The notes under the pieces were generated by a model. That model saw only the letters and a program-made list of their open reading frames with translations. It searched no databases and had not been told where the DNA came from. DNA of 64,000 bases from a virus (Duplodnaviria; Caudoviricetes): positions 1-64,000 of the IMG/VR virus record IMGVR_UViG_3300028833_000087, one strand, 5' to 3'. Positions 2,632-58,915 of the stretch are shown one piece after another; the first letter of the stretch is position 1, and every line of letters starts with the position of its first letter. Position numbers and translations under genes: made by a program.

Positions 2632-3234
2632 ATGGAAAGATCAAGATTCGATTCAGATAATCCAAATTTAGAGAAACCAGTAATATTTTATAATGATGGT
2701 GGTCAGGCTCCGTTAACTAAACCTATCTATAAATTAGATCAGGAAGTTAACGGGCCTGACCAATTCGCTATCACTGCATTAACTGAAAATGGTAAATTTC
2801 TTGTCGGTGGGATGTTAGTTTACACATACAAAGGTGTGCAAATATACACTGACAAGAACAATATAATATTTGTTAATAGAACAAGTGATAGAATATTTAT
2901 ACGAGATGATTCGAAAATAGAAAAGAATTTAAATGTAGTAGATCCTGAACAGAAACAATATATTATTTTATATACAGATGCAGGAGATGAAGAATCTGAT
3001 GCTGAATTTGTATATAGATGGGAAGCTTGTATAGGTAGAACTACGGCTTATGATTATATCAGAACCAATGCACCTATCATAGATATAGATAAATCAATAG
3101 TATTAGTAGAAGATGTAGCATTTAATGATGCATTAACTGTAAGACAGTTTGTGAATTTCTTGAAAAATTCTAATATGGTTGATGAATATGATGGATTTAA
3201 TATAGAAGATTATTACGGATCAGATGAAATTTAA
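2632..3234 (+). CDS. hypothetical protein
   Basis: 200-aa ORF with RBS; two N-terminal LxKP[VI] motifs. Confidence 0.8.
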   Translation: MERSRFDSDNPNLEKPVIFYNDGGQAPLTKPIYKLDQEVNGPDQFAITALTENGKFLVGGMLVYTYKGVQIYTDKNNIIFVNRTSDRIFIRDDSKIEKNLNVVDPEQKQYIILYTDAGDEESDAEFVYRWEACIGRTTAYDYIRTNAPIIDIDKSIVLVEDVAFNDALTVRQFVNFLKNSNMVDEYDGFNIEDYYGSDEI

Positions 3235-3245
3235 AGGAGATAGTT

Positions 3246-3701
3246 ATGGCAAAACAATGTTATTTTGATAATATGAAGCAAATGTATGGGGATAACTGGT
3301 TTGTTGGATTATCTCCTGATAATATTCAGAAGAACTCTAATAGAATCTTTAAAGAAATGGTAAAAGGATACATTGATTATGAGAAGTATGGTAATTATTT
3401 TCTTGATGGAAAATTAACTGACAATCTTATAATCAGTGCTAATAATGAGTTAGAAATAAATACGTTGCTTTTAAGCTCTCTCTCATATTATTACAACGTA
3501 TCTGCTAATATGGACCCTAATGTAAGAAATATTGTGCAGTCATATGGTCCTACGGTAGGAGCAGAATTAACTCATCTTGAAGCTCTGTGTAGAATTTATA
3601 GTGTTTTGATTAGTACTTTAAAAAGTATTAAAGAAACCTATAGTATTGGTTATTTGGCAAATGTAGCAACTTTGCTTTATAATATAAGAAACCATATATA
3701 A
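3246..3701 (+). CDS. hypothetical protein
   Basis: 151-aa ORF, AAGGAG RBS. Confidence 0.8.
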   Translation: MAKQCYFDNMKQMYGDNWFVGLSPDNIQKNSNRIFKEMVKGYIDYEKYGNYFLDGKLTDNLIISANNELEINTLLLSSLSYYYNVSANMDPNVRNIVQSYGPTVGAELTHLEALCRIYSVLISTLKSIKETYSIGYLANVATLLYNIRNHI

Positions 3702-3714
3702 AAGGAGGTTCAAG

Positions 3715-4233
3715 ATGAACACAAATCAAGTTTCAAAAATCATGAGCGCTATAGAAGCAGCTGAAATTAAAGAATATAAAGTTACCAGTACAACTGGATA
3801 TCATCTTCAGAACAACCCTAGTTCAGGTGTTGTTATTGAAGATGATGCTAATGAAATGCTGCATAATATTAGAGCTAAATCTAAAGTGTATGGTGCAGAA
3901 CCTTTTGCAGGAAATGCAGTTGTTGAATCTTTGGATTATGCTGATATTTCTGAATTCACTATTGGTGGAGGATTTAAAGCTATCAAAGACTTCTTTAGTA
4001 ATATGGGAGTAACCCTTACTAAAGAACAGCAAGAAATATTATTAAAAATTGATAGATCTAACTATCAGATAATTCCGGAAACCGGAAATTACCATCCTTT
4101 TAAACCTGTTAGTCAGGAAGAATATGATGCAATGACAGAAGAAGAAAAGGCTGCATATGATGCAGCTAAGAAAGACGACGAAGCTCGTAAGACAGGTATT
4201 AATCAGGGTAGAGCTATCAGAATAACTTGTTAA
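3715..4233 (+). CDS. hypothetical protein
   Basis: 172-aa ORF, AAGGAGG RBS. Confidence 0.8.
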   Translation: MNTNQVSKIMSAIEAAEIKEYKVTSTTGYHLQNNPSSGVVIEDDANEMLHNIRAKSKVYGAEPFAGNAVVESLDYADISEFTIGGGFKAIKDFFSNMGVTLTKEQQEILLKIDRSNYQIIPETGNYHPFKPVSQEEYDAMTEEEKAAYDAAKKDDEARKTGINQGRAIRITC

Positions 4234-4266
4234 TTAGTTATAATTATTAGAGGTAAAACTCTAATT

Positions 4267-4286
4267 AATTATATATAATATTAATG
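4267..4286 (+). promoter_or_regulatory. class-1 (putative early) phage promoter
   Basis: AATTATATATAATATTAATG. Confidence 0.6.
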
Positions 4287-4336
4287 ATATCGTTGACGGT
4301 TTGGGTTGACATATCACGATTGAAAGGAGAAACACA

Positions 4337-5236
4337 ATGTACGACATGAATAATCAGCAGTATCCTCACATGCAGCCGACAGGAGGTTATTATTATCAGG
4401 GGTATCAGGGTCAGCCGGCTCCGGTACAGAAGATCAATAATATCCTTAGTGCTGAACAGATCGATAAGCTTACTTCTCAGGGTGAGTTTGATCTGGGTAT
4501 TTCCGAAGAAGACTTAAACAGAGCTCTTTGTAATCATCGTAGCAAAGATGGTGAAAGAGACACGTTGACGTTTGATCCGGTTACCGGTGTAGCTCGTTGT
4601 ACTATCTGCGGCTATACATTCAGACCTATCGACAGCAATGAAACAGCTGACGAGATCAAATCATCTGTGGCTAAGATCATCGATATTTTGCAGACAATTA
4701 AGATTCTGTATGTTGATCTGCCGCCTCAGGCTCACCGTGATTTCTTCCCGATTCTGGCTATGCTGGAAAAGATTCCGCAGTTGTTTGAGTACGCCTCCAA
4801 GAACTTCTCGAAACATGAGACTTTCAATTGGCAGTATCGTGGTTACAACATGAATGGTGTACAGATGCTTGCTAATCTGAATAACATCTTCAATGGTGGT
4901 GGAATGTATCAGCAGCCGCAGATGATGGGTGGACCGGCTCCTTATCAGTATCAGCAGCCTGGATTCGCTCCTCAGCAGCCGCAGGGAAATCCGTTTGGAT
5001 ATCCGGGAGCACAGCCGCAGCAGCCGATGATGGGTAATCCTTGGATGCAGCAGAATATCTCTGCTCCGACAATGAATGGCAGCGCTTGGACTCCGATGTC
5101 TTCTCAGGCACCTGGATACCAGCCGCAGGCATATCAGGGATTTAATCCGAATCCTGCACAGGCTACCACTCCGGCTCCTACAACGGTTGATACCAAGTCT
5201 GAAACTGCAGAAGTCAAGAAAGACATCATGGTATAA
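4337..5236 (+). CDS. Q/P/G-rich low-complexity protein with putative Zn-binding core
   Basis: CNH...CTIC motif; Q/P/G/Y/M-rich N- and C-termini; AAGGAG RBS. Confidence 0.8.
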   Translation: MYDMNNQQYPHMQPTGGYYYQGYQGQPAPVQKINNILSAEQIDKLTSQGEFDLGISEEDLNRALCNHRSKDGERDTLTFDPVTGVARCTICGYTFRPIDSNETADEIKSSVAKIIDILQTIKILYVDLPPQAHRDFFPILAMLEKIPQLFEYASKNFSKHETFNWQYRGYNMNGVQMLANLNNIFNGGGMYQQPQMMGGPAPYQYQQPGFAPQQPQGNPFGYPGAQPQQPMMGNPWMQQNISAPTMNGSAWTPMSSQAPGYQPQAYQGFNPNPAQATTPAPTTVDTKSETAEVKKDIMV

Positions 5237-5328
5237 GATAAAGTTGATAAAGGGTAAAGTGCTAGCACACCTATGCAACTATAAAATTCTTTCAATTTCG
5301 TGATAAACTCAAATAGATATCAAAGATC

Positions 5329-5363
5329 TGACTCTAGGCTTATAATAGCCTAGAGTCATTTTT
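5329..5363 (+). terminator. intrinsic terminator
   Basis: 12-bp stem TGACTCTAGGCT/AGCCTAGAGTCA followed by T-run. Confidence 0.8.
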
Positions 5364-5423
5364 ATGTATTTATTTTTATCAGCATTATTACTGATTTTTT
5401 ATTTTGAAATTACAAAATTCAGT

Positions 5424-5436: not shown

Positions 5437-5461
5437 CCAAAATTTTTAAAGGAGTGATAAG

Positions 5462-6835
5462 ATGGTACAACAACTTACTGAAGAACAAAAAGCAGCTATT
5501 GATAATTATGCGGATGAGATTGCATCATTATCTGGGTTTGTTGAAATCTGTAGATTAAGACCAGGATATCAGTTAGGATCTCTTGGTAATAAAGCTTTAT
5601 TATCAGAAGCAAGAGAAATATTTCAAAATTCTATCGACCAGATAGTAGACAAATCTAGTCCTGCTAACTGGTTTAGATTATCTTATGATGAAAGAACTTT
5701 AGAGGTAACTTGTGAAGATAATGGTAAAGGTATTCCTCTTAATGATCTTATGAGAGTATTTACCAAAGAATATACTTCAAGAAACTATACAAGAAGAAAG
5801 GGTGAATATCCTAGCGGTCTTCATGGTGTAGGTGCTAAAGTTGTAAATGCTCTAAGTTCCGAGTTCTTGGTTCAGAGCTTTAAGTATACTGGAGAAGCAG
5901 CTGAGATTAGATTTAAAGAAGGAATTCCTGTATATAAAGAAGCCAAATCAATTCCAAATAAATCCAAAAAGAATGGTACTTTAGTATCATTTATTCCTGA
6001 TACAAGTATTCTTGGTGATATTGATTTACCTTGGAAAGAATTATTTCATTTTGTAAAGAAAATTATGTCATTGACTCCCATTGGAACTCATATGACATTT
6101 GAAGCTATAGATAAAAATGGTATTAAATATCATGAAGATGTAGTAAATAAAGATGGTATTCTTTATAATATGATTTCCAAAATGAGTAATCCGTTAGTAA
6201 AACCTATTATGTTTGGTGCTGATGATGGTACTCATAAAGTAGAAGTAGTAATTGATTATGACTTAGGTACAAATGGACCTAGCGATATGGAAAATATTAC
6301 ATCATTTTGTAATTTCTGTATTACAAGAACTGAAGGTAGTACTCATGTAAAAGGTACACTTGATGGTATAACTGCATGGTTTACTAAGTACATGAATAAT
6401 ATCTATCTTATTAATCAGAAAGCAAAAGAGAAATTGAAGATTACCAATAATGATATTAAATGTGGACTGAATATCATTATTAATGGTGCTCATATAGAAC
6501 CTGTATTTGAAAATCAGGGTAAAGATGTAATTGCAAATCCTGATATGGTAGACTTCTGTAAAGATACAGTAATTAAGGGATTGGATGATTGGGCAAAGAA
6601 TAATCCTAATGATCTTCAGAAAGTAGCTAAATTCCTTAAGGATGTAGCTGAGAATAGACAGAAGCAAGAAGCTGGTAAAGCCAAGATTGTACAAAAATAT
6701 CAACAGAATATATTAACAGGTTTACCTCAGAAATATGTAAGACCTTTAGGAAAGACTAATATTACAGTGATAATAGTAGAAGGTGATTCTGCTAAAGGAA
6801 ATGTTGTTGAAGGACGAGATCCGAAGACAATGGGT
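5462..6835 (+). CDS. gyrB: type IIA topoisomerase B subunit, exon 1
   Basis: EIFQNSID, DNGKGIP, GLHGVGAKVVNALS, VEGDSA; joined exons give 792 aa. Confidence 0.92.
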
Positions 6836-7285
6836 AGATATGTGCCCCATATTGCAGTAATGCAGTGTGCGTAAACTTTCTAATTGCTGGGAAAGGCTAA
6901 AGCTCTAAACACCTTATCGAATAGAAAAAGGTTGAGGAAACTCAGAAAAAAGATTTAGAGATGGTATATGGTGAAATAAAAGCTTAATATTTTATAAAAT
7001 ATTAGGTCCTAAGTACAGTAAGAAATGTCTAATCAGCAGCTAAGACTTTGTATTTGTTATATTTAAGGAGATATATAATAAATATAAAGTAAAGTTCAAC
7101 GACTATCCCCTATAAGGGACGTGGAAATCGTCAAAAGGAGTAGGGCCTAAGCAGGTGGGTGAAAATCCCTTAAATCAAAATGAAAGTATGCCAGAAATGG
7201 TATTGATATAGTCTCAACTTCTAGCTAACTGCTAGAGAAGTTCATAAGAGAACTGCATAGAGTAGCGACCTATGTGAAGATTTTG
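6836..7285 (+). mobile_element. group I intron 1 of gyrB (no ORF, 450 nt)
   Basis: exon ends in U, intron ends in G; core elements AATTGCTGGGAA, AATCAGCAG, GTTCAACGACTA, GATATAGTC; removal restores KTMG|VYPIRGK. Confidence 0.9.
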
Positions 7286-7471
7286 GTATATCCAATACGT
7301 GGAAAATTAGCTAATGCTTTTAGAAAATCAAAGCATGAGTTCTTTTCAAATGAAGAAGTACAAGGTATTGTACGAATAGTATTTGGTAAAGAATGGAAAC
7401 CTGGAGAGAAATTTACTCTAGACGATTGTAAAGTCTCTAGAGTAGTATTTATGGCTGATGCTGATGTGGAT
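7286..7471 (+). CDS. gyrB: type IIA topoisomerase B subunit, exon 2
   Basis: PIRGKLAN...MADADVD TOPRIM motifs. Confidence 0.9.
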
Positions 7472-7807
7472 AGACTAATACTGTCCTAAAATACTTTTCG
7501 CAAAACCATGCGGGTTATTCAAATGAATAGCTAACGGTAAGAGTGGAATAAGACTACTGATCAAAGCCTAAAGCAGATATCAGTATATATAAAAGACGAA
7601 GTAGCTCTCTAAGAAAGCCTAAGGTCCTGAAATGGATAGCTGGTAATACCGTGGGAATCAATATAATTGAAGCCTGTATCGACTATCTCCGTGAAGGAGA
7701 GTACATCCTCTATTGGTACGAGGGTGGAAAGAGTATTCTCTATTTTAGAGTAAAATATAGTCAGAACTCAAAGGATTATATCCTGATATGAAAATATCAC
7801 GAGTTTG
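7472..7807 (+). mobile_element. group I intron 2 of gyrB (no ORF, 336 nt)
   Basis: P1 GGAU/GUCC with U.G at splice site; P7 CGACTA / TAGTC; terminal G; removal restores DADVD|GGHI. Confidence 0.88.
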
Positions 7808-13834: not shown

Positions 13835-16060
13835 ATGGCAAACTTAAACTTCATTGATAAAGTTAACGAAGCAACTAAAGATATTACAAGTCTTGAACAG
13901 ATTATCGGTAAAGGTTTACTTGAACCATTTAATGGATCTAATGCCGGTGCTAGAAAATTAATGTTTTCTACTCATCATGATCATATTTTCCCACTTATTG
14001 CTGCTGAGAAAGCAGAGATTGAAACAGGATATGAGATAAGATATGGAGATTTTAGTAGCTCTATTACCAAAGCAGATAAAGATTATAAAGTGGTAGCAAA
14101 AGTATCAAAGTTTTCATTTGCTCCTAATCATCATTATTGGTTAATATTGGAAGATGTAAATAAGAAAGAATTGACTGCAATAGAAAGAATCTCATATCAT
14201 CCTACAACAGAGCAGTACGGATATTTATATAATAATTCTTATATGGATTCTCTCAATATTGGAGATATAATTCCAAAAGATACATGGGTTCAGCAATCAT
14301 TAGCATATGATGATTTTAAGAATAGAAAAGACGGAATCAATATGGTTACATGTTATATGGCTCTTGATGATAACATGGAAGACTCGATTATCTTTTCAGA
14401 TGTAGCTGCAGGTAAATTAACTTCTCCGTTAATTAAGCCTGTAAGAATAATGATCAATGATAATGATATTCCGTTAAATATCTATGGAGATGATAAGACA
14501 TATAAGATTATTCCTGATATTGGTGAAGATGTAAAGAATGCTAATCTGATTTCTCTGAGAAAAGAGAAGAAAGATGAATCTTATTATAGTCAGTCTATTG
14601 CTAGACTTGAAACAAGCATTATGTCTGATGAAACTCGTCAGGTCACAGGAAAAGTAATAGATGTCAATATTTATTGTAATAATCCTGAAATATTAGAATC
14701 TCATTATTATGCTCAGCTTAAAATGTATCAGGAAGAATTATTAAGATTTGCTGCAGAATTATTGCAAGTTATTCTTCCATATAAATCTCAAGGTTATAAA
14801 TTAGAGTATGATCTTGAGAAATTATATAATACAATGAGCATGGTTCAGTCCGGTGCTTTGTATACAGATAAGAAACCTTATTCTAATATTATTCTTGATA
14901 TTGTAGTATTAGAAGAACTCAAAATGAATGCTGGTGATAAAGCTAGTAATAGATTTGGCGGTAAAGGTGTATGCTCAAATATATGGCCTCAGAAATGGAT
15001 GCCTAGATACAAAGGTATCAAAGGAGACTATAAATATGTAGATGTAATCTTCAATTCATCTACAATGACTAATAGAGAAAATGTTGGTCAGGTATTCGAA
15101 TTAGAGCTTACACATATTTCTGAAGAGATTCTTAAGTATATTTATAATAATAAGATGACTGTAAAGGAAGCATATGAAATGATTCATAAATTCATTTTCA
15201 TGTGTACTGAATTATATGGTAATTATTTTGAATATAAATGCAGTATGCTGTCAGAAGATGAATTAGCATTCTTTATAGAATCTATTATCGAATCAGAATC
15301 TATTCAGTTATCCATGAAAGCTTTGTCTGAATCTATGGATATTGATAAGCTTGATGCTATATATAAAGCTTTCCCGTTTGTAGAACAGAATGAAGTAGAA
15401 GTTCCTATGAGAGATTCTGAAGGTAATCTCAGATATGTAAAAGCAAGAAGAAGAATGGTTATTGGTAAAGAATATATCTTCAGATTAAAACAGTTTGCTG
15501 AAGAGAAATTCTCTGCTACATCTCTGTCCGCTACAAATATTATTAATGAGAATACTAAGTCTAGAGCTAAGAAAGACTATCGTGAATTGATTCCTAATAC
15601 TCCGATCAGATTCGGTAATATGGAAACAAACAATATGCTTCATCTTGGTGTAGAAGTAGTAATTTCAAATATGATGATCCATTCTCTTTCTCCTTTGGGT
15701 AGACGATTAGTTGAACAAATGTATACAGGAGATCCATATAATATTGATATTAAACTTGATTCTAAATCTTCTAATAGAGCAGCTGAAAAAGCCAATACAT
15801 ATATGAAGACTATTGGTCAGCAGTTATTATTTAAGAAGATCAAGAAGAAGTTTGAGACAGTATTAACAGCTCCTATGACATTTACGCAATATCCTTTTGA
15901 AGTACCTATGAGAGAAATTCCTAAGGATGTTGGAGATAACTATGATGCTGTAAAAGCAACAAAAGAAAGAGAAAAGCTTGAAAAGAAGAAAGCTAAAATG
16001 GATCTTGAATGTCCTGTGAAGTTTGTAGGAAAGAAAGGATTTTTAAACAGAGATGTTTAA
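13835..16060 (+). CDS. RNA polymerase beta-like subunit, C-terminal half (probably non-virion RNAP)
   Basis: ARKLMFS, NMEDSII, GDKASNRFGGKGV, IFN....NREN, PIRFGNMET. Confidence 0.88.
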   Translation: MANLNFIDKVNEATKDITSLEQIIGKGLLEPFNGSNAGARKLMFSTHHDHIFPLIAAEKAEIETGYEIRYGDFSSSITKADKDYKVVAKVSKFSFAPNHHYWLILEDVNKKELTAIERISYHPTTEQYGYLYNNSYMDSLNIGDIIPKDTWVQQSLAYDDFKNRKDGINMVTCYMALDDNMEDSIIFSDVAAGKLTSPLIKPVRIMINDNDIPLNIYGDDKTYKIIPDIGEDVKNANLISLRKEKKDESYYSQSIARLETSIMSDETRQVTGKVIDVNIYCNNPEILESHYYAQLKMYQEELLRFAAELLQVILPYKSQGYKLEYDLEKLYNTMSMVQSGALYTDKKPYSNIILDIVVLEELKMNAGDKASNRFGGKGVCSNIWPQKWMPRYKGIKGDYKYVDVIFNSSTMTNRENVGQVFELELTHISEEILKYIYNNKMTVKEAYEMIHKFIFMCTELYGNYFEYKCSMLSEDELAFFIESIIESESIQLSMKALSESMDIDKLDAIYKAFPFVEQNEVEVPMRDSEGNLRYVKARRRMVIGKEYIFRLKQFAEEKFSATSLSATNIINENTKSRAKKDYRELIPNTPIRFGNMETNNMLHLGVEVVISNMMIHSLSPLGRRLVEQMYTGDPYNIDIKLDSKSSNRAAEKANTYMKTIGQQLLFKKIKKKFETVLTAPMTFTQYPFEVPMREIPKDVGDNYDAVKATKEREKLEKKKAKMDLECPVKFVGKKGFLNRDV

Positions 16061-16809: not shown

Positions 16810-19164
16810 ATGGTGAATATAATGAATGAGCTTGAATTTCTGGACGAACTTTTGAAAGGAAATGGCAGTGTAATTATTGACAATAATATTTACATGCTAA
16901 ATAATTCTGCAATAGAATTATATGGCAAGCCTGAACTTTCAGAAAATGAAGTTCAGAGGCTTAAAGCCATAATTATGGCTTGTAATATATTGTATAATCG
17001 TACTGATATGACCATACAGGTTATAGAAGACGGTTTTTATGATATATTGCTGGAGAAGTATAAGAAATATGATCCAAACTTCCAAGTTGGATCAGCAATA
17101 GTAGATTTTAAGAATCTACAGAAGAATGAAATACACCAAGAACTGGAAGTACCAATGAGGATGATTGTGCCGGTTGAGCGCGATGAAATTCATCAGAAGA
17201 TATGCGATGACATTAATAAGTCACGCATGGATTATATCGATAAAAGAGATTTTTGTGAAATACCTATTCGATTAATCAATTCTGATATTTCAAAGCGAAC
17301 TCATGATACCGAGCACAATCATCCTGATTTGGTTGGTACTTTGGACAAGGCAAAGTTCGTTTTTTCTTATGAAGCTGAACAGGCTGGTGTATTAAACGAT
17401 CCAAATGTAGTTGTATTAGAACGAGATTTCTTTGGAGATCATGTAAAGAAAGGAATCTTGGATCCTAATAGAATTATAAATGTAATTTGTGAATTAAAGT
17501 ATGATGGTATCTCTGTAGAAGCAGATTGTAATTTCTCAGTTCAATCAGCAAGAACAAGAGGAGATACCGGTATTGGTAAGGCATCTGATTTATCACCATT
17601 ATTACAAGGCTATATATTCAAGCATGCTGATTGCATGATTGGAGAAAAGCCTGTAGGTGTTAAATTTGAAGCAATAATGACTAAAACAAATCTGGAGGTG
17701 TTTAATAGACTAAGAGGAAAAGATTATAAGAATTGTAGAACTGCTATCGTCGGATTATTTGGAGCCTCTGATGCATATCAATTTAGAGATCTGATAACTC
17801 TAATACCTCTAGCAGTAGATCGTAATGATGTTCCAGCTATAACAAATAGACTGGAAGAAGTAGAATTTTTAAATAAGGTATTTATATCACATGGAGAACC
17901 TTTAAGATATTGTATTCTTCAAGGCAAACTTCATGAGATATTATATATGATCAAGGCTTTCTGGGACGAAGCAAAACTTGCACGAGATCATCTGAATTTT
18001 ATGTATGATGGTATTGTAGTATCCTATCTCGATGAAGATATCAGACGAAGATTAGGTCGCGTAAATTTCATCAACAAATACAGTATGGCTGTCAAGTTCG
18101 ATCCACTGGAAGCCCAAAGTATATTTAGAGGATATTCATATGAGATAGGGCAAAATGGACAGATCACTCCGATGATTCATTATGATCCGGTATGCTTCTT
18201 AGGAACAATTCATACGAAATCCACAGGATCAAGTTACGAGCGCTTTAAAAATCTAGCATTAAGAAAAGGTGATTATGTCAATATCAAATACGTCAACGAT
18301 GTCATGCCATATGTAACCAAGCTAGATTGTGATCATAATCGTAACAATAATAATCCTTTAGAGGAATTTCCAACTGAATGTCCTTGTTGTAGAACCAGGT
18401 TAATCATAACTGATTCAGGGAAGACTGCCGTTTGTCCAAATATAGAATGTCCGGCAAGATCTCTACAGAGAATGGTTAATATGATGGCTAAACTTAATTT
18501 AAAAGGATTTGCTGATGCTTCATTTGAAATGCTAAATATAACACATTTAGCAGATTTGGTCAAGTTAACACGAGATCAGATGATCAATAAGATTGGAGTA
18601 GCTGATGGTAATAATCTATATAATTGTCTGCAGGTATTGAAATCTAATCCTTTGCATGATTATATTATTATGGGTTCATTAGGATTCAGCGGAATAGCTT
18701 CTAAAAAATGGAAGACAGTACTCCAAAAGATTACATTAAAAGAGTTATATGGTAATTTTAAAAGTCGCAATTTTAAAGATTTCCAAGTATTTGTATATGG
18801 TGTAATCAAGCAAGAAGCTACAGCAAATGTAATAGCTACAGAATTCGGATTCTTTGAAAGAGATATAGAAGAAATATTATCTTGGAATAATCTTATAGAT
18901 TCTTTTGGATCAGAATCTAGTAGTAAGTTGCAGATAAGATTCACTGGATGTAGAAATAAACAATTAAGTGAACTTTTACTTAATAACGGCTATGATGCCG
19001 ATGATTCGTCGAGTGTGACAAAGAAAACAAATATTCTATTGGTACCTTATGAAGGATTCAGATCTAATAAAACAGATAAAGTAAGCGATACATGTAGGAT
19101 TATTCCTATAGATAGATTCATTACGAATATGAACGAGATTTTGAATGATAATATAGTACAATAA
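16810..19164 (+). CDS. ligA: NAD-dependent DNA ligase
   Basis: ELKYDG, TRGD, DGIVV, AVKF, Cys4 Zn finger, C-terminal BRCT-like domain. Confidence 0.92.
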   Translation: MVNIMNELEFLDELLKGNGSVIIDNNIYMLNNSAIELYGKPELSENEVQRLKAIIMACNILYNRTDMTIQVIEDGFYDILLEKYKKYDPNFQVGSAIVDFKNLQKNEIHQELEVPMRMIVPVERDEIHQKICDDINKSRMDYIDKRDFCEIPIRLINSDISKRTHDTEHNHPDLVGTLDKAKFVFSYEAEQAGVLNDPNVVVLERDFFGDHVKKGILDPNRIINVICELKYDGISVEADCNFSVQSARTRGDTGIGKASDLSPLLQGYIFKHADCMIGEKPVGVKFEAIMTKTNLEVFNRLRGKDYKNCRTAIVGLFGASDAYQFRDLITLIPLAVDRNDVPAITNRLEEVEFLNKVFISHGEPLRYCILQGKLHEILYMIKAFWDEAKLARDHLNFMYDGIVVSYLDEDIRRRLGRVNFINKYSMAVKFDPLEAQSIFRGYSYEIGQNGQITPMIHYDPVCFLGTIHTKSTGSSYERFKNLALRKGDYVNIKYVNDVMPYVTKLDCDHNRNNNNPLEEFPTECPCCRTRLIITDSGKTAVCPNIECPARSLQRMVNMMAKLNLKGFADASFEMLNITHLADLVKLTRDQMINKIGVADGNNLYNCLQVLKSNPLHDYIIMGSLGFSGIASKKWKTVLQKITLKELYGNFKSRNFKDFQVFVYGVIKQEATANVIATEFGFFERDIEEILSWNNLIDSFGSESSSKLQIRFTGCRNKQLSELLLNNGYDADDSSSVTKKTNILLVPYEGFRSNKTDKVSDTCRIIPIDRFITNMNEILNDNIVQ

Positions 19165-19845: not shown

Positions 19846-20532
19846 ATGGAATTGAAATTGCCTGAATTTAATATTAAAAGATGTGTATATAATGGTCAAA
19901 CTATGGATATTCTTGATTATAAAAGTTATGGAGAAAATCCTGAATTAGCTAGAACAGCTCCTGGCAGTACTGTTATAGAAATGACAACTGAATCTGGTAA
20001 AGATATAGTATTACCTTATAAAGGTAAACGACCTATTTCTGAAACTGTTCCTGGTATTTATGACTGTGGTCCAATGGATGTAGTCATAATGCCAAAGGAA
20101 GAATTTGAAAATGACTATATTCCCAACGATGTTGTTATTTTTAATAGCAAAGACGGAATCAAGAATATCCAAGATAAACAAGATAAGCTAGCTAAGTTAA
20201 CTGAACCATGGATTGTAAACTCTGATAATATTACAGTGGTTGGAATTGAAGATACTAATCAGCCTGAGATGGTAGGATTAAAGACAGCTATAAATGAAAA
20301 ACAAATCGATCTCGATAAATATGCATCGAGATTTGGTGAAAATTTTCCTAATGATAAACGACAGCTTAAAAATGATTCTTTAACTTTGAAAATTCTTAAA
20401 AGGTTTTGTACTAATCTGGATATTGAAGCTGAATTGGTTTTCAGAGACAAGAATCCGAATGTTCCTAATCCTATTAATAGAGAAATTGTAGTATCTTTAA
20501 CAGAAAACTATGAAGATGATGAAGAGGGATAA
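19846..20532 (+). CDS. hypothetical protein with possible C-terminal XRE/Cro-like HTH
   Basis: LKTAINEKQIDLDKYASRFG...LTLKILKRFCTNLDIE. Confidence 0.55.
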   Translation: MELKLPEFNIKRCVYNGQTMDILDYKSYGENPELARTAPGSTVIEMTTESGKDIVLPYKGKRPISETVPGIYDCGPMDVVIMPKEEFENDYIPNDVVIFNSKDGIKNIQDKQDKLAKLTEPWIVNSDNITVVGIEDTNQPEMVGLKTAINEKQIDLDKYASRFGENFPNDKRQLKNDSLTLKILKRFCTNLDIEAELVFRDKNPNVPNPINREIVVSLTENYEDDEEG

Positions 20533-20537: not shown

Positions 20538-22355
20538 ATGGAACAATTGACACAAGCAGCTCTAATGAGAGAATTTAACGATAAGACAAGAGAACAGTTT
20601 AATCCTGAATTGTTCGAAAGAGATACTCATGATATTGTAGACTCTATATATAATATCGTTAAATCTTGTGAAAGAGATAGATATTTCACTTTAAAACTTA
20701 CAAATTTTGAAGTGATAGAAAATTATACAGATATTATAAATGCTTTAAGAAAGCATGAAGATGATCATAAGAAAAAGAATGATAAATCTCCGAATACATA
20801 TGACTTTATTCAGATAAAAGATACAGATGTAATGCTTATAAAACTTAATTGGTTTATTAGGCATAATGATATGGAAAGACAAGAAATTGATGGTAAGACT
20901 GTAGAAGTTATAAATCCATCTACAAATCTTGAAGTACTTATTGCTGTTCCTAGATTTATGAGGAAATATTATTTCAAGATTTCGGGTAACTATTATTCAG
21001 CAGTATTTCAGATTGTTGATGGTAGTACTTATAATAATAGCACTTCATCTCAGTCGAAAGTGGATACAGTTACCACAAAAACAATGTTTACACCTATAAG
21101 AGTATTTCGTGGATTTACTGAAATGAAAGATCTTGTAACGGGTTGTACTCTTAAAGTTATAGAATATAGTACAATTATTTTTAATAATTCCGTAAATGCT
21201 ATATATTACATGCTTGCTAATATGGGATTATATGGAGTATTTGATTTCTTAGATATTCATTGTGTTTATCTTACAAATCATATGGTTGAAGATCCTGGTT
21301 ATGTATGTTTCCAAAAACATAATATTTTTATCAGCACTCCGGTATATGCATTTGCTGAACCAATGGTACAATCTTTGTTAAGTACTCTCTATAGAGCTAT
21401 CGGAAAGGATACAACTATTAATGAATTATTCGATATTAGATATTGGATAAAGAGTTTAGGTGGTGCCTTTAAGAATGCTTCTATAGATAAAGGATTATTT
21501 GTATTGGATTCTATAGACGGTACTTATGATAATATTACAAAAAGAGATCTGCATCTTCCTGAAGAAGATAAAGCTGATATTTTCTGTCTATTAAGATGGA
21601 TACTCAGAGAATTTTCTGCTCTTAGAGCAAAGGAAAATGTAGATGTAAGAACTAAGCGTATTCGTATTGCTGATTATATTGGTCAGTGTTATGCCACAAG
21701 ATTGAATAAAGGTATGTATAGAATATCAGATCTTGGAAGAAGAGTAACTTTAGCGAAGGTAGTACAGGCCGTATATACTCAACCAATGTTTTTGATAAAT
21801 TCTATATCTACAATGAGCAATCTTATCTCTTATAGAGACAAAGTAAACGATAATGATGCATCGAGTGCATTGAAATTTACTTACAAAGGTATATCAGGTT
21901 TAGGAGAAGATGGCGGCAGTATTCAAGATATCTATAGATATGTAGATCCTACACATATAGGTATATTGGATCTTGATTCTAGTTCAAATTCTGATCCAGG
22001 AATGTCTGGTATGTTATGTCCTATGGCTAAATTGTACCATGATAATTCTTTCTCTGATTATGAAGAACCTAATAGTTGGAGAGAAAACTGGAAAGCAACA
22101 AAAGATAAGTTTTATAAAGGATTAGAACAGCCAGTAAAAATCGTAGATCCTGATAAAGAAGTTAATCCTTATAAAGATTTAAGAAATAATATTATTCAAA
22201 ATGAATTGGCTATAAATAAGCTGGAATGCCCAATTATGTTTACTGATCTTGAAATAATTCATAATCAGGAAATTGATTGGTCAGAGGATTCAGAAATAAA
22301 TAATAGTATTTTCAAATCAGTAGAGGAATCTGTTAAGTTAAAAGAAGAAGATTAA
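20538..22355 (+). CDS. RNA polymerase beta-like subunit, N-terminal half (probably non-virion RNAP)
   Basis: FKISGNYYSAVFQ, KRIR, GISGL, YRYVDPTHIGILD..SS.SDPG (cf. RDVHPTHYGR.CP.ETPEG). Confidence 0.85.
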   Translation: MEQLTQAALMREFNDKTREQFNPELFERDTHDIVDSIYNIVKSCERDRYFTLKLTNFEVIENYTDIINALRKHEDDHKKKNDKSPNTYDFIQIKDTDVMLIKLNWFIRHNDMERQEIDGKTVEVINPSTNLEVLIAVPRFMRKYYFKISGNYYSAVFQIVDGSTYNNSTSSQSKVDTVTTKTMFTPIRVFRGFTEMKDLVTGCTLKVIEYSTIIFNNSVNAIYYMLANMGLYGVFDFLDIHCVYLTNHMVEDPGYVCFQKHNIFISTPVYAFAEPMVQSLLSTLYRAIGKDTTINELFDIRYWIKSLGGAFKNASIDKGLFVLDSIDGTYDNITKRDLHLPEEDKADIFCLLRWILREFSALRAKENVDVRTKRIRIADYIGQCYATRLNKGMYRISDLGRRVTLAKVVQAVYTQPMFLINSISTMSNLISYRDKVNDNDASSALKFTYKGISGLGEDGGSIQDIYRYVDPTHIGILDLDSSSNSDPGMSGMLCPMAKLYHDNSFSDYEEPNSWRENWKATKDKFYKGLEQPVKIVDPDKEVNPYKDLRNNIIQNELAINKLECPIMFTDLEIIHNQEIDWSEDSEINNSIFKSVEESVKLKEED

Positions 22356-27403: not shown

Positions 27404-28546
27404 TTAATACATATTGTTTACTTTGTTCTCATTAATAATTACTAGCGGGAATGTCTGATTAAGATTCTGGTTCTTTGCTATCATATGATCTCTATCTACC
27501 GTTGTATCTTCAACAATATTTAAATCATATGTAGGCATATTAGGAATAATTTCACCAGTAGTTACATTCATGTATTGGAAGAATTTATTTCCTGTAGCAT
27601 CATCAAATACAAGAACTTGCTGTATAGCAGGATTATCTTCATACATCCAAGAATTCTGTTCAGGTGTAAGATTGGACTTATAATTCATATAGGAAACATC
27701 TACAGGCATATTACCTTGCATTTCCATAGGAGTTGTTGCTCTTACCACACCAGATCCAAACATAGCCACATCTACAGGAGAATAGCTTGGTTGAGCAGGA
27801 TTCATCATAGGATTATTTACAAAAGATCTATACATGTCAGCTACATACTTATCATCGTTCATATCAGCTTGAGCTGCTTTAATATCTTTCATCTTCTTAT
27901 AATCCATTTCATTAGATTTAGAAATGGAGTTGTTAATTTCTTTGATGATAGATACTTTAGTATTAAGCAATGTAGCCACATTTTCAGATATACCAACCAA
28001 AACATTATACTTATTCTTCATAGTACGATTATGCTTTACATTGGTAAACTCTTGCATTAATTCTGCATTAAGAGAATCAGTTTGTCCAAGAGTAGTACGA
28101 AGCATATTCGTGGTTTCCGCATAAGTATAAGCAGTAGGCATTTCTACAATATCATTTGCAGGATTATTATCTGGCGACAATGTATCTGAAATTGCTACTT
28201 CGGTTGATTCTTTCCTCTTCTTTGCCTTTTTAGCTTTAACTTCTTCTCTTTCCATGTCAGGAATATCTCTATCAATTTTTATTGTAGTAGAACTAGAACC
28301 TGACATAGGTGGTTTAAAATGAAATTTACCATCATTTGAAGAAGAAGTTTTGATCTTAGGTGTTTCAAATGCTCTAGGATCAATCATTTGCTGTTTAACA
28401 GCTTGAGGAATTTGCTCTGCATTTGTAAATGGATTTTGCCCTACAGGATATTGTACCTGAGGAGTACTAAATACAGGTTGAGCACCTAATGGTACAGGAG
28501 CATATTGTCCAGCATAAGGTGAATTTACAGGTTCAAAAGTACTCAT
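27404..28546 (-). CDS. hypothetical protein (P/Q-rich N-terminus, coiled-coil middle)
   Basis: 380 aa; AAGGAGG RBS; ACA-N6-TAAT at 28576-28588. Confidence 0.8.
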   Translation of the reverse strand: MSTFEPVNSPYAGQYAPVPLGAQPVFSTPQVQYPVGQNPFTNAEQIPQAVKQQMIDPRAFETPKIKTSSSNDGKFHFKPPMSGSSSTTIKIDRDIPDMEREEVKAKKAKKRKESTEVAISDTLSPDNNPANDIVEMPTAYTYAETTNMLRTTLGQTDSLNAELMQEFTNVKHNRTMKNKYNVLVGISENVATLLNTKVSIIKEINNSISKSNEMDYKKMKDIKAAQADMNDDKYVADMYRSFVNNPMMNPAQPSYSPVDVAMFGSGVVRATTPMEMQGNMPVDVSYMNYKSNLTPEQNSWMYEDNPAIQQVLVFDDATGNKFFQYMNVTTGEIIPNMPTYDLNIVEDTTVDRDHMIAKNQNLNQTFPLVIINENKVNNMY

Positions 28547-32626: not shown

Positions 32627-32923
32627 ATGAGAAATCCTGTTATTGTAGATCCTATAAGTTTTATTCAGAAATTTCTTGATAAACAAGAAAAAACCAGAAT
32701 ATATATTTATAAAGAATTACAAATACTACACGATATAGACATAGATAATAGCTACAAAGAACAATATCTGAATACTATGTTTACAGAATTATATTTTAAA
32801 TGCGCTAATAATACTGTAAGAACTAAATGTCTTAAATGCAAATATTCAGAAGAATGTGATAAATATAGGTCTGAAGCATTACGCACTTTAGAAATTCCGC
32901 AATTTAATCCATATGAAATGTAG
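32627..32923 (+). CDS. Cys-rich small protein
   Basis: YFKC...CLKCKY..EC.K. Confidence 0.7.
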   Translation: MRNPVIVDPISFIQKFLDKQEKTRIYIYKELQILHDIDIDNSYKEQYLNTMFTELYFKCANNTVRTKCLKCKYSEECDKYRSEALRTLEIPQFNPYEM

Positions 32924-49732: not shown

Positions 49733-51526
49733 TTGATGGTTATTCAGAGGAAACAATCTAAATCTATAAATCCTAAGAAGAAACCTATATCTTTAAATTT
49801 AGATCTTTCAACTCTTGACATTCTTTGCAGATATATTTTACAATCTCATGTATTTGTAAAAGTGGAGCATCTGGTTAATCTTAGAAATTTATTAATCAGT
49901 ATAGATCCGAAAACTTATGAGAATGAGCAAGAGAAATTTAAAAGATTTAATTTTCTTTTTAAGGGTTTAGAAGCTAGAATAGAAGAGAAACTGGAAGATA
50001 GAGATATAGTATTAAACTATATCAATGGTGGATTAACATATAAACTTGATTTTATCGATTATAATAGATTAACTTTATCTCAGCAAGAAATATTTCATAT
50101 ACATAAATTGGTTGCTGATATATTAAAATTCAAGTTTATGTATATTGATGCAGATGAATATCTTGATATATTAACAAGATTTAAAACTTGTGATTTTGAG
50201 AATAGAGGAAATATAATTAATGAGTTTGAAAATCTTATTGATAGAACCAAGAATAATTTCAGAAATGCCAGAATAGAAGATAATGCAATAAATATGACAT
50301 TTAGTTTAAGAGATGGAATATTTGAAAATTGTATTACAAATGCTTATAATATCCTTACAGATTCTAACAGAAGACTTATAACAGGTATGCAAGGATTTAA
50401 TGAGATAGTTGGTGGTGGATTAGAAGATGAGCGAGTATATATGTTATCCGGTACAGCTGGAACAGGTAAATCATTTGCTCTACTCAATATAATATATCAA
50501 ATAAAGAAATATAATCCATATTACAAAACCAAAGATCCAACGAAAAAACCTTGTATTACATTATTGACTATGGAGAATACAGTTGTAGAAACAATTGCTC
50601 GACTGTTTGCTATTATAAATGATCATGGCGGTGGTAAAATGGCTAACTATTCGTTAGAGGATGTATTAAGAATCATGAGAGAAGAGGGCCAATTATATCT
50701 CAACGATAGTTCTCCAATTGATATAGTCATAAAATATAAACCAAATAAGTCTGTAGATACAAGTTATTTATATACTTTATATGATGATTTATCAGATGAA
50801 GGATATGAAATGATATTGTTAGCTCAAGATCATATTAAGAGAATCAGATCTATTTATAATGGAAATGAACTTAGAATTGAGCTTGGTGATATCATGAATG
50901 AATTTAAAACCTTTGCTATAGATAAGTCTATACCTGTTATGACAGTAACTCATCTTAACAGAGAGGCGACTAGAGTTCTTGAAGAAGCTGCTAAGAAGGG
51001 AAATCAGGATACAGGTAGATTGGTTGGAGGATATAATATCGGTGAATCTATGCTTTTGATCGATAATGTTGATTGTAATATAAATATTACTAAAGACCAT
51101 GATACAGATGGTAATATGTATATGTGTTTCAATTCAACGAAGATGAGAGATGATAGCATGAAGAGTTATATTTGTCAACCATTTGCCGTTGGTTCTAAGA
51201 TAAGATTACTTGAAGATATTGGTGGACCTCCACAGTATAAAGAATCTATACATATTGCTCCTGAAATGAAGAGACATCCTGGAATAGTAAATTCACCTGG
51301 AATGTCAATGTTTGAGTTCAATAATGTATTGGATTCTTCTGATAAAAAAGAGGATAATCCATTCGACAAGGATTCTTACGCATTGAATTCAAGCTCAGAA
51401 ATACAAGATAATTTAGATGATATCAGAAATGTTCTAGGATTAGAAAATTCCAATGATGATATTATCTGTCCTGTAAGATTTATAGATGAATCTATAGAAA
51501 GCTTTAAATTACCCTCTAGGCAGTAA
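49733..51526 (+). CDS. dnaB: DnaB-like (SF4) replicative helicase
   Basis: TGMQGFN..GG, GTAGTGKS, TMEN, QDHI, THLNR. Confidence 0.85.
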   Translation: MMVIQRKQSKSINPKKKPISLNLDLSTLDILCRYILQSHVFVKVEHLVNLRNLLISIDPKTYENEQEKFKRFNFLFKGLEARIEEKLEDRDIVLNYINGGLTYKLDFIDYNRLTLSQQEIFHIHKLVADILKFKFMYIDADEYLDILTRFKTCDFENRGNIINEFENLIDRTKNNFRNARIEDNAINMTFSLRDGIFENCITNAYNILTDSNRRLITGMQGFNEIVGGGLEDERVYMLSGTAGTGKSFALLNIIYQIKKYNPYYKTKDPTKKPCITLLTMENTVVETIARLFAIINDHGGGKMANYSLEDVLRIMREEGQLYLNDSSPIDIVIKYKPNKSVDTSYLYTLYDDLSDEGYEMILLAQDHIKRIRSIYNGNELRIELGDIMNEFKTFAIDKSIPVMTVTHLNREATRVLEEAAKKGNQDTGRLVGGYNIGESMLLIDNVDCNINITKDHDTDGNMYMCFNSTKMRDDSMKSYICQPFAVGSKIRLLEDIGGPPQYKESIHIAPEMKRHPGIVNSPGMSMFEFNNVLDSSDKKEDNPFDKDSYALNSSSEIQDNLDDIRNVLGLENSNDDIICPVRFIDESIESFKLPSRQ

Positions 51527-56072: not shown

Positions 56073-56807
56073 ATGGAATCAATAGTATTAAGAAATGAAT
56101 TTAACCAATATCCTGATATTATTAGTTATGACGAAAAGAATCCGACATTAACTTCTCCGTATTCAGATACAGATTGTCCTTTCTATATGACAAAAGATAT
56201 GCTTATAGATGTAGATTTATTTAGAAGCTTTGTAAAGAATGCCGAAGCTAGTTTTAGAGCTTCTCATGAATATAAACTTTATAAATCTTATCTTATAGAA
56301 TATTTAGGAATGAATAGATGCCAAATATTTGGTAATATAACTAATGAAGATGCTAAAATAGAATTACATCATAATGTAATTGGACTATTAGATATGTGTA
56401 TTCTTATAACTTCTCATGTAGTAAATACTGTAGGATATATAACTACATTTGATCTAGTTACAATGCTTATTCAAGAACACTATGCAAATAATGTAGGTGT
56501 AGTATTTTTATCTACCACAGCTCACCAATTATATCATCATGATGATGAAGGATATTTACCACCAGAAATGACATTTGGTAAATGGTGGAATTTATTATCT
56601 AAATATAAATATGGTATTACTTTTGACTTAGCAAACAAGATAGTAAATTATTTAACTAATTATTCTAATAATAAGGTAATAACAGTACATCCTAGACTTA
56701 ACGATGTAATATATAGCTATGCTAATTTTAATGAATATTGCAATGTAAGTCCTCAGGAAGCTGGATATTTACCTGATATGAGCGAATTTATGGAGGAAAT
56801 ACAATGA
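56073..56807 (+). CDS. HNH-like nuclease-fold protein
   Basis: IELHH...LSTTAHQLYH. Confidence 0.55.
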   Translation: MESIVLRNEFNQYPDIISYDEKNPTLTSPYSDTDCPFYMTKDMLIDVDLFRSFVKNAEASFRASHEYKLYKSYLIEYLGMNRCQIFGNITNEDAKIELHHNVIGLLDMCILITSHVVNTVGYITTFDLVTMLIQEHYANNVGVVFLSTTAHQLYHHDDEGYLPPEMTFGKWWNLLSKYKYGITFDLANKIVNYLTNYSNNKVITVHPRLNDVIYSYANFNEYCNVSPQEAGYLPDMSEFMEEIQ

Positions 56808-57250
56808 TTAGAGATATTATGAATATTTGGATTGGTCTTATAATGACTTCAGTTGTAGTACTATTATATTATAATACTATAATAAATGAGAAAAAGAAGA
56901 ATCTTCTAAAAGAAAAAGAATTAGAAAATCAAAAAATGGAATTAATGATGAAGATTGATACTAAAGCTGCAAGAGCTGAAATAGATTCTTTAATTGAAAG
57001 ATACTTTGGAGAATATACACTATATAATTTTGTAGCTCAAAAAGTAGTATATATTAAGAAAGAAGACGCCGAATTAGCTGTAAAGGAAATTACTAAAAGA
57101 ATTATAATGAATATGTCTGAAACTTATATATTCTATATGAAGATACTATATTTTATTGATGATGAAGACGGACTTTTGGAAAAAATTACTGATATGGTAT
57201 CTGAGCAGATGATTTCTTATATGGTAGAATATAACAGACCAAAGGAGTAG
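56804..57250 (+). CDS. single-TM membrane protein
   Basis: N-terminal hydrophobic helix then coiled coil. Confidence 0.7.
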   Translation: MIRDIMNIWIGLIMTSVVVLLYYNTIINEKKKNLLKEKELENQKMELMMKIDTKAARAEIDSLIERYFGEYTLYNFVAQKVVYIKKEDAELAVKEITKRIIMNMSETYIFYMKILYFIDDEDGLLEKITDMVSEQMISYMVEYNRPKE

Positions 57251-57266
57251 GGCTAAGCCCTACTCC
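57244..57266. terminator. hairpin containing both convergent stop codons
   Basis: GGAGTAGGGC-TAA-GCCCTACTCC. Confidence 0.7.
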
Positions 57267-57925
57267 TCTTTATCGTTAAATAATTCTAACAAATGTCTTA
57301 CAATAGTATCTTTACCAGAAGCTGTTCTACCGACAATACATATGATAGCTTTAGGATCATAATCTTCAACTATTTTACAGAAAATATTAGATACTGTACC
57401 ATTAAGATAAGGATTATCATTAATAAAAGATGTATAAGGAATAGAAGCAGCTTCAAAATCGGTAAATTGTTTATCTTCTGATGAGTCTCTATCCTTAAAT
57501 TTCCACATATCTTTAGCTGTACATTCTAACCCTAATCTTTGCATATATCTTCTATATCTATTATTGAAAGAACAAGTAATGTGATAAATATTAAGTTTAA
57601 CTTCAGGGTGTCTTTCTTGAATATCTTTAATACCATTAGGATCGATAATATAAACATTATGATCTTTCATTTGATCGGTTAAAGTAAAATATCTACGATT
57701 ATTGATCTCAGTATATGCAAGAATTTTATCTTTATCTTTTAAAATTTCATCAGCTTTTTCTTCAGAAATAAATAAATGTTCCACTCCATCTGTTTCGCCT
57801 AATCTTTGAAGCCTTGTTGTATAAGATATAAAAGGAATAAATTTCTTATCTGATATTAACTCTTTTACTGATTTACCGGTTTGCTCTTTTATTAAAAGTT
57901 TTACTGTTTCTTTATCGTATATCAT
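57260..57925 (-). CDS. gmk: guanylate kinase-like protein, circularly permuted
   Basis: SYTTR..R.GETDGVEHLF, IIDPNG; P-loop GRTASGKDT at C-terminus; AAGGAGG RBS. Confidence 0.8.
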   Translation of the reverse strand: MIYDKETVKLLIKEQTGKSVKELISDKKFIPFISYTTRLQRLGETDGVEHLFISEEKADEILKDKDKILAYTEINNRRYFTLTDQMKDHNVYIIDPNGIKDIQERHPEVKLNIYHITCSFNNRYRRYMQRLGLECTAKDMWKFKDRDSSEDKQFTDFEAASIPYTSFINDNPYLNGTVSNIFCKIVEDYDPKAIICIVGRTASGKDTIVRHLLELFNDKEE

Positions 57926-57942
57926 AGTTTTATCCTCCTTTA

Positions 57943-58118
57943 TAAAAAATAAAAAGTCCCGGGAATTATTCATTCCCGGGGGCAACAAAATGAGTGTAAA
58001 GTATATAGAATTCGTGATGGTTTGTGTGCTATCTGGGGGATAAGCGTTGTATGTATAGTTTAATATTTTCAGGGGTGGGTTATTAAACTATTTTGTAACG
58101 AATCTATATACTTTACAC
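57943..58118 (-). ncRNA. candidate structured RNA (sRNA or gmk leader)
   Basis: 21-bp closing stem, two inner hairpins with C-rich loops, terminator 57958-57980. Confidence 0.6.
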
Positions 58119-58123
58119 ATATG

Positions 58124-58915
58124 TTATTCATTACTGTAAAATATTATTGGTATCTCTAGTTCTTCTTTTTTATTATCTTCTATCATTGGAAGCATATAAT
58201 TATTACTCTTTAATACATCTATTCTATTATGCATATCTTGGTTAATATTAGTTATTTCCGGCAATCTATAGTTTTCATTTTTAATATCCACATTGACTTT
58301 ATTATAATTCAAAATATCATTATTTAATAACTCATTAGATTGTTTTGCTGTATAATTTTCTATTCTCTCTAAAACATCTATCTGTTCATCTGTAATAAAT
58401 GGACGATAGTATGTAACGAATAGGTCATATCTTCCTAAAACTGTATTTATAGGAATAAACAATCTATGAGCATGTACCAATTCATGAACTGTCTTAGATA
58501 AAGGAATAAGTCCTATCATATTTTTATAATGCAAAGACATTATTTCTTTAGCAACCATCCATACAGATACATTTTCATTATAATAACAGCGTTTCTTATA
58601 AACTATATTTGCTATATCATCTAATGAAAATGGATAATGATGTATCTCTATGCGGATATCAAATCCTTCAGAATTACTTACTCCTTCTATGAAACTATCT
58701 TTATTCATTCCATATTTATCTCTGATAAAGTTTATATATCTTCTATATTCAAAAGACTTTCTTACAACTTGTTTTATAGTAAGTATATATTTATTAAATT
58801 CTTTATCATCATCAAGATTAAATGGATTTACATTTTCTATTTCAGGTACATCTTCTAAAGCTATATAATTTTGTAAATTATGATGCTGAGCTTGTATAGC
58901 ATCAGGATCTATCAT
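58124..58915 (-). CDS. HNH-like nuclease-fold protein, paralogue of 56073-56807
   Basis: IEIHH...LSKTVHELVH. Confidence 0.55.
   Translation of the reverse strand: MIDPDAIQAQHHNLQNYIALEDVPEIENVNPFNLDDDKEFNKYILTIKQVVRKSFEYRRYINFIRDKYGMNKDSFIEGVSNSEGFDIRIEIHHYPFSLDDIANIVYKKRCYYNENVSVWMVAKEIMSLHYKNMIGLIPLSKTVHELVHAHRLFIPINTVLGRYDLFVTYYRPFITDEQIDVLERIENYTAKQSNELLNNDILNYNKVNVDIKNENYRLPEITNINQDMHNRIDVLKSNNYMLPMIEDNKKEELEIPIIFYSNE

Follow-up and report, generated by a model that had tools for sequence, protein, structure and literature searches.

Polymerases, ligases, junction resolvases, SF2 helicases and the transcription machinery are recruited by PCNA, by the bacterial beta clamp and by T4 gp45 through linear motifs. 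In phage T4, transcription uses the sliding clamp through linear peptides (PMC2988020), and in phage Mu, the protein MuC ties late transcription to the host clamp (PMC12867686). In the related phiKZ-like jumbo phages, whose PolB is divided into an exonuclease chain and a polymerase chain, the puzzling absence of a processivity factor has been noted as an open question (PMC3201878). The present analysis concerns a short peptide motif with the core P-[IVM]-x-F, which recurs in the tails and insertions of DNA-acting enzymes encoded by a virus contig of 121,433 bp with 29% G+C (G000; IMG/VR record IMGVR_UViG_3300028833_000087). The opening 64 kb of this contig (64,000 nucleotides) form the stretch that was analysed, called the window below. 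The finding is real, conserved and, by literature searches on jumbo phages, in which a motif of such kind was not described, previously undescribed. The motif is probably a genuine short linear docking motif that is read by one common partner.

Judged from its sequence, G000 is an uncultured jumbo phage and a distant relative of AR9. No near relative was found among GenBank phages; kinship with Bacillus phage AR9/PBS1 and with Staphylococcus jumbo phages is seen at 25-35% protein identity and in local gene order. Six relatives with about 55-63% protein identity were found in IMG/VR. The whole record of an IMG/VR relative of 200,990 bp, rated complete (G005), was taken as the reference proteome, and a scan of IMG/VR with a single protein, the G005 beta'-C subunit, returned no match beyond itself. 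Hundreds of proteins of the family turned up in metagenome searches, on contigs reaching about 300 kb, which points to a large uncultured jumbo-phage clade. We presume that this clade comes from the gut or rumen, as read from the IMG/VR sample numbers and from one match named Erysipelotrichaceae MAG (metagenome-assembled genome). Proteins carrying the motif were named through Pfam and AR9 orthology. Among about 60 open reading frames (ORFs) of the window searched with Pfam and PHROGs, most clade-specific proteins had no family, and the gain from PHROGs was almost nil.

The initial annotation had proposed a motif of the form L-E-x-P-[VIM]-x-hydrophobic. All the sites cited for it were found in place, in frame and within long ORFs. 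In the alignments of relatives, the P-[IVM] core held, whereas the L-E prefix proved to be confined to the G000 lineage. Throughout the family, the core reads P-[IVM]-x-F, with Ser or Cys and two aliphatic residues usually preceding it and often an aliphatic or acidic residue, then Pro, after it. The family profile reads x-x-[SC]-P-[IV]-x-F-x, in which the Pro is near-invariant. More broadly, the pattern consists of an aliphatic residue, an aliphatic residue or Glu, a small residue and P-[IVM]-x-[F>I,M], and a further aliphatic residue or Pro often follows soon after. In the G000 lineage, +1 is often Met, and +3 often Ile or Met. Codon choice varies between the copies and nothing comparable occurs in the other five frames, so the recurrence is at the level of the peptide. 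A repeat at the DNA level is ruled out by the differing codons and the zero off-frame matches.

The non-virion RNA polymerase of the window carries the motif in the tails of both halves of its beta subunit:

13835-16060: ORF of non-virion RNA polymerase beta-C, matching AR9 gp088 (C-terminal half of beta)
15863..15886, + strand: beta-C tail site 1, aligned in relatives
15896..15919, + strand: beta-C tail site 2, with Glu at +3 in G000 and Phe in the family
16004..16027, + strand: beta-C tail site 3, aligned in relatives
20538-22355: ORF of non-virion RNA polymerase beta-N, matching AR9 gp104 (N-terminal half of beta)
22122..22145, + strand: beta-N tail site 1, aligning with S-P-[IV]-x-F in four relatives
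22221..22244, + strand: beta-N tail site 2, less conserved

Conservation of the beta-C sites was followed through 98 distinct metagenome tails. At site 1, Pro is kept in 93/98, Ile or Val in 93/98 and Phe in 98/98. Site 2 keeps Pro in 96/98 and Phe in 87/98, and site 3 keeps each of the two in 95/98, with a Gly two residues past the Phe in 95 of 97 tails. The beta-N tail is missing from AR9 gp104. The beta'-C subunit has one motif copy in its tail, which is retained in three relatives.

The other copies of the window lie in enzymes of replication and in proteins of less certain role:

16810-19164: ORF of the NAD-dependent DNA ligase LigA, with two copies in an N-terminal insertion
17143..17166, + strand: LigA site 1, residues 112-119
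17254..17277, + strand: LigA site 2, residues 149-156, aligned with P-[IV]-x-F sites in the loci L001-L003 and degenerate in L004
31890-31910, 31920-31943 and 31959-31982, + strand: three degenerate copies in the tail of PolB part 1 (ORF 31389-32042)
51461..51484, + strand: one copy in the C-terminal tail of a DnaB-like helicase (ORF 49733-51526)
58136..58159, - strand: copy at the extreme C-terminus of ORF 58124-58915, AR9 gp241-like, phrog_12252
2668..2691, + strand: copy 1 of ORF 2632-3234, N-terminal residues 13-20
2713..2736, + strand: copy 2 of ORF 2632-3234, weaker, with Lys at +3
32642..32665, + strand: candidate copy in ORF 32627-32923, N-terminal residues 6-13, a match of the position-specific scoring matrix built from sites that a regular expression had selected

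In LigA, the N-terminal region before the part alignable with AR9 is about 77 residues longer than in the AR9 ligase. The tail copies of PolB part 1 align with P-I-I-P, S-P-I-E-F and S-P-I-I-F of the G005 polymerase tail. In four relatives, nothing in the DnaB tails can be aligned but one or two motif copies each near the end. An SF2 helicase, AR9 gp155-like, has two copies, and its tail copies are retained in three relatives; RusA has one copy at its N-terminus (G005 153042-153527). ORF 58124-58915 had been labelled HNH-like, a label that falls, as no HNH family matched the gp241-like protein; its orthologue in G005 has the motif at the same C-terminal place. ORF 2632-3234 encodes a protein of 200 residues with an acidic C-terminal tail and no assigned function, and the motif stands at residues 9-16 of its G005 orthologue (h47942). 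Another G005 protein, h105378 (105378-106769), has the motif at its N-terminus and a long Q/P/G/Y-rich region.

Several side observations concern these carriers. PolB part 1 (exonuclease and N-terminal part, AR9 gp131-like) is encoded by ORFs 28642-30267 and 31389-32042, and its gene is split by an insert, probably an intron, that bears an HNH-endonuclease-like ORF at 30399-31199. Its counterpart, the AR9 gp151-like second part of the polymerase, is encoded in three pieces at about 78.6-81.5 kb of G000; a tblastn search of G005 detected no gp151-like gene. A paralogue of ORF 58124-58915 within phrog_12252, the AR9 gp260-like protein at 56073-56807 (+ strand) of the window, has no motif. The N-terminus of G005 RusA and the C-terminus of the G005 gp241-like protein (124125-124946) have a longer stretch in common, P-I-S-F-D-P-S-L-I, which suggests an extended motif or a recent module transfer.

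The motif was tested against chance, first with a profile built from eight seed sites. The seed profile recovered the DnaB copy, which was not a seed, independently and at a score at which about 0.17 chance matches are expected. With the context regular expression, 15 matches were counted in G000 versus 4.3 expected in residue shuffles (z 5.1), and 19 versus 6.6 in G005 (z 4.0); reversed and permuted control patterns were flat and not enriched. G005 has 29 P-[IVM]-x-F matches, of which 17 stand no more than 45 residues from a protein end; 4.6 are expected there, and 0 of 300 shuffles reach 17. When about 48,000 three-residue patterns were enumerated in the G005 termini, P-I-x-F took rank 7 (13 occurrences versus 2.25 expected, p 8e-7), and the patterns that outranked it were low-complexity, transmembrane-like or zinc-finger only. 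The motif is, hence, commoner than in shuffled sequences in both G000 and G005, with a terminal excess in G005.

The positions of the motif are, moreover, kept in relatives, as followed in the six IMG/VR relatives, the 98 beta-C tails, DnaB and the polymerase tails. The three sites of beta-C, site 1 of beta-N and both LigA sites fall in the same alignment columns in IMG/VR relatives, while the flanks change and accumulate indels. The loci L003 and L006 have sites of the form P-I-S-F. Across G000 and G005, the carriers are beta-N (1-2 copies), beta-C (3), beta'-C (1), PolB part 1 (2-3), DnaB (1-2), the SF2 helicase (2), LigA (2), RusA (1), the gp241-like protein (1), the ORF 2632 family (1-2) and several unassigned proteins. 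No clear terminal copy was found in the virion RNA polymerase subunits, GyrA/GyrB, the UvsX-like recombinase, the Dda-like helicase, SbcC/SbcD or the primase, nor in GroEL. The same holds for thymidylate synthase, the lysin and the structural proteins, in line with the restriction to nucleic-acid enzymes that the initial annotation had supposed. One borderline copy is found close to the C-terminus of the G005 dCMP deaminase. The AR9 orthologues stop short of the tails or carry unrelated acidic ones, likewise beta-C of Staphylococcus phage SA1, which makes the tag an innovation of the G000/G005 clade. Two other roles were considered and rejected. A virion-packaging signal is ruled out, as the motif marks subunits of the non-virion RNA polymerase and has no clear copy in those of the virion enzyme. 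A tag for joining split subunits is ruled out by the motif in the unsplit DnaB, LigA and RusA.

In sum of its properties, the motif behaves as short linear motifs do: it forms conserved islands in diverging sequence outside domains, it recurs in unrelated proteins, and disorder of its surroundings is indicated by flanks rich in indels that cannot be aligned. Its location in tails, at the N-terminus of RusA and in the ligase insertion, with flanks that diverge or cannot be aligned, is also that of clamp-binding motifs. An island that recurs in the free-evolving ends of unrelated enzymes acting on phage DNA is characteristic of a docking motif read by one partner. The docking proposal of the initial annotation stands in that the peptide-level motif lies outside the folds of non-homologous DNA enzymes, is conserved and is enriched at protein ends; what did not stand is its L-E definition. 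The partners that it named, a compartment scaffold, an import gate or a clamp-like hub, are candidates. The alternating hydrophobic positions after the invariant Pro suggest that the motif would form a short extended strand, whose side chains at +1 and +3 would enter a groove on the shared partner. Several copies per client would provide avidity. Enzymes of transcription, replication and recombination would in this manner be held together on or near the replicating phage DNA, by the logic of a sliding-clamp 'tool belt' or a replication factory.

Some observations speak against such a docking motif. Binding is deduced from the pattern of the residues. With strict Phe at +3, the enrichment in G000 taken by itself is modest (8 terminal matches versus 3.5 expected; 10/300 shuffles reach 8), the motif of this lineage being more degenerate. 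The conservation of the beta-C tail extends past its three motif sites, so part of this tail may be a folded element and not a free linear motif. Site 2 of beta-N is poorly conserved, its relatives retaining C/A-P-[IVL] and having lost the Phe at +3, and copy 2 of ORF 2632 is not clearly conserved in G005. In addition, searches of G000 and of the complete G005 with Pfam models of the clamps (beta clamp, PCNA, gp45) and of the clamp loader gave no credible match. DNA_pol3_beta had no match in either genome; PF02916, PF09116 and PF13177 had none at E<=1 in G000 or the complete G005, in searches that very divergent clamps could escape. The sole match of PF00705 (PCNA) was sub-threshold, at 10 bits, and inside GyrA. 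AR9 has no clamp annotated. Over the threshold for PF00004, one G000 ATPase only was found, a classical AAA ATPase at 40366-41580 (+ strand) of the window (E 7e-27) whose N-terminal domain, about 220 residues long, has no assigned function; it is not conserved in G005.

Compared with the described docking systems, the phage motif has clear likenesses and differences. The beta-clamp motif is likewise a short hydrophobic motif in the termini or loops of polymerases, ligase and repair enzymes that binds one partner, in some cases with multiple or degenerate copies. In contrast to its consensus (Q-L-[SD]-L-F or Q-L-x-L-x-L), the phage motif has an invariant Pro and Phe at +3, and Gln is not enriched. 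The phage clients also differ, since DnaB is among them, as are three subunits of a multisubunit RNA polymerase, and no clamp or loader gene is detectable. In T4 (gp45 with gp43, gp33 and gp55) and in Mu (MuC), the transcription machinery and the replicative polymerase bear the same docking peptide, as here; in those phages it couples late transcription to replicating DNA. T4, however, places its motif at the extreme C-terminus of small adaptors and encodes the gp45 clamp and the gp44/62 loader, whereas in G000/G005 the polymerase subunits carry the motif themselves. The clients of the PIP box of PCNA (Pol B, Lig1, Fen1, Hjc, Hel308) come near to the same spectrum, and they share the terminal location and the use of the N-terminal region of the ligase. 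The PIP box itself (Q-x-x-[LIM]-x-x-[FY]-[FY], a 3-10 helix) has a different pattern, and the alternating hydrophobic residues of the phage motif suggest a strand.

As for docking by an added beta strand, the R-V-x-F motif of PP1 and the P-x-I-x-I-T motif of calcineurin have cores of the type [VI]-x-F or P-x-I-x-I that are read in this way and resemble the phage motif. The basic residue that precedes the core in PPP phosphatase docking is not consistent in the phage motif, and we know of no PPP phosphatase partner in these phages. The C-terminal tip of bacterial SSB (D-D-D-[IL]-P-F) differs as well, since its Pro follows the aliphatic residue instead of preceding it, most phage copies are internal to the tails, and the phage motif has no acidic run. 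A resemblance to this tip is seen in AR9, whose DnaB (NC_031039.1 3583-5268, locus L024) ends in D-S-G-I-P-F; with this G-I-P-F end, the cultured relative may solve docking in another way. Protein import in Chimalliviridae (PicA/Imp1) is similar in its selective gathering of phage DNA and RNA enzymes by a jumbo phage with multisubunit RNA polymerases, but several enzymes that would need import have no clear motif copy in G000/G005. Import into the phage nucleus depends on surface patches of folded cargo and not on terminal signals (PMC12908238).

Among the rival explanations, a divergent binder of the host beta clamp (DnaN), tethering polymerase, ligase, resolvase, helicases and late RNA polymerase, appears improbable. 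The aliphatic-x-aromatic order after the Pro is loosely like the bacterial L-x-L-F, the client list resembles that of clamps, and no phage clamp or loader was detected in G000 or G005; Mu offers a precedent (PMC12867686). Yet the motif does not fit Q-L-[SD]-L-F, since the invariant Pro replaces Gln and +4 is often Asp or Glu, and AR9-type relatives, likewise clamp-less, do not have the tails. We also hold it to be an outside chance that the motif is a targeting or import signal into a replication compartment made by the phage, such as a selectively gated shell, vesicle or condensate. All the marked proteins act on phage DNA, in contrast to the unmarked thymidylate synthase, lysin and structural proteins. 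The family has several low-complexity proteins rich in Q/P/G/Y that could build condensates, and G000 carries a PhuZ-like tubulin outside the window, at about 90833-91930 (L031 1498-2595; Pfam Tubulin E 2e-12, phrog_4733 'tubulin PhuZ' E 1.5e-13). This tubulin is, however, absent from the complete G005. A query with phiKZ gp54 (chimallin) found nothing at E<=1 in G000 or G005, in a single-sequence search that is weak for a fast-evolving protein. Chimallin is reported to be lacking in PBS1/AR9-type phages (bioRxiv 10.1101/2023.02.24.529968) and, in the literature, also in PALS_2. Three points weaken the import gate: gyrase, UvsX, Dda, SbcCD and primase have no clear copy although they would require the same address, that search found no chimallin homologue, and the known route into the phage nucleus reads the surface of its cargo.

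A dedicated receptor might also be dispensable, if the copies bound each other or low-complexity proteins as strand-forming 'stickers'. This would agree with the multiplicity of copies in a client, of which the polymerase subunits together have up to six, with the motif in the low-complexity G005 protein h105378 itself, and with the longer identical stretch around the motif in G005 RusA and the gp241-like protein. An invariant Pro at fixed spacing to Phe is, nevertheless, more typical of a fitted pocket, and a repeat-rich, self-associating context was not seen; we regard stickers as a remote prospect. The weakest candidate of all is the absence of any common function, with the copies arising by chance from composition or as independent structural elements. 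The AT-rich genome makes Ile, Phe and Lys common, a loose regular expression is enriched just 2- to 4-fold, and some of the cited copies are weak. Against this stand the retention of Pro and Phe in 87-100% of the 98 beta-C tails, the survival of the motif in otherwise unalignable DnaB tails, and a terminal enrichment in G005 that none of the 300 shuffles reached while the permuted patterns stayed flat. By these conservation data, the explanation without common function is largely refuted.

For a docking motif with one partner, that partner is most likely phage-encoded, clade-specific and without detectable similarity to known clamps. Such a non-canonical phage hub is favoured by the lack of fit to the bacterial, PCNA and T4 consensus together with the lack of a credible clamp or loader match. 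Candidates were sought among clade-conserved proteins without the motif that are absent from AR9 even by profile search:

4337..5236, + strand: ORF 4337, 299 residues, clade-specific hub or scaffold candidate
19846..20532, + strand: ORF 19846, 228 residues, hub candidate between the ligase and beta-N genes
27404..28546, - strand: ORF 27404, 380 residues, hub or scaffold candidate adjoining the polymerase gene

ORF 4337 has a confidently modelled core with a zinc ribbon and helices (about residues 30-165), flanked by disordered, prion-like arms of low complexity rich in Q/P/G/Y/M, and its extreme C-terminus is conserved; 62 metagenome homologues were found. A fold search with its model gave weak zinc-ribbon and generic helical matches only and no known fold. 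Its layout of core, disordered linker and tip recalls bacterial SSB. ORF 19846 has an N-terminal beta domain and an XRE-type helix-turn-helix (predicted local distance difference test, pLDDT, of 91 for the model). Its fold search matched an XRE-type helix-turn-helix for residues 135-204 (Z 3-5) and left the beta domain unmatched. It belongs to a large phage family of 281 representative clusters, none of them annotated. ORF 27404 has an N-terminal region rich in Q/P/G/Y and more than 220 metagenome homologues. In the ESM Atlas, ORF 27404 and ORF 19846 matched unnamed viral clusters only, and sequence searches of the PDB with ORFs 2632, 3715 and 19180 returned nothing meaningful. A complex prediction for the beta-C tail (residues 668-741) with the ORF 4337 core, ORF 19846 and the C-terminal part of ORF 27404 returned no verdict (score 0.00), in a four-chain design that is unlike the calibration of the tool, and weighs neither way.

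The Q/P/G/Y-rich regions of ORF 27404, ORF 4337 and G005 h105378 are hints of condensate-type scaffolds in the family. The hub that reads the tag may be a protein such as ORF 4337, ORF 27404 or their relatives, in which prion-like arms rich in Q/P/G/Y accompany a folded core. That such a clade-specific, non-clamp hub would assemble a factory or condensate on the DNA out of the phage's RNA polymerase, replisome and recombination enzymes, as a novel organising system, is a tentative proposal that we consider unlikely without dismissing it. If true, it would be the first linear signal for client recruitment or targeting described for a phage replication compartment, and the hub might bear on the missing processivity factor of phiKZ-like jumbo phages. 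A partner that was a new hub or condensate scaffold would represent a new principle of phage cell biology. If the partner were instead the host clamp, the motif would be a new class of clamp-binding motif and a new example of the coupling of transcription and replication. The tag gives an experimental handle, with the peptide as bait for the partner and reporter fusions to locate phage DNA transactions. Unassigned proteins that bear the motif (ORF 2632, ORF 58124 and others) can be provisionally assigned to DNA transactions.

Next to the carriers, the gyrase genes of the window show a broken arrangement. GyrB lies in pieces at 5462-6874, 7274-7489 and 7805-8626. An ORF with a NUMOD4 motif (8667-9080) follows the last GyrB piece and precedes GyrA, an arrangement that suggests introns or homing endonucleases.

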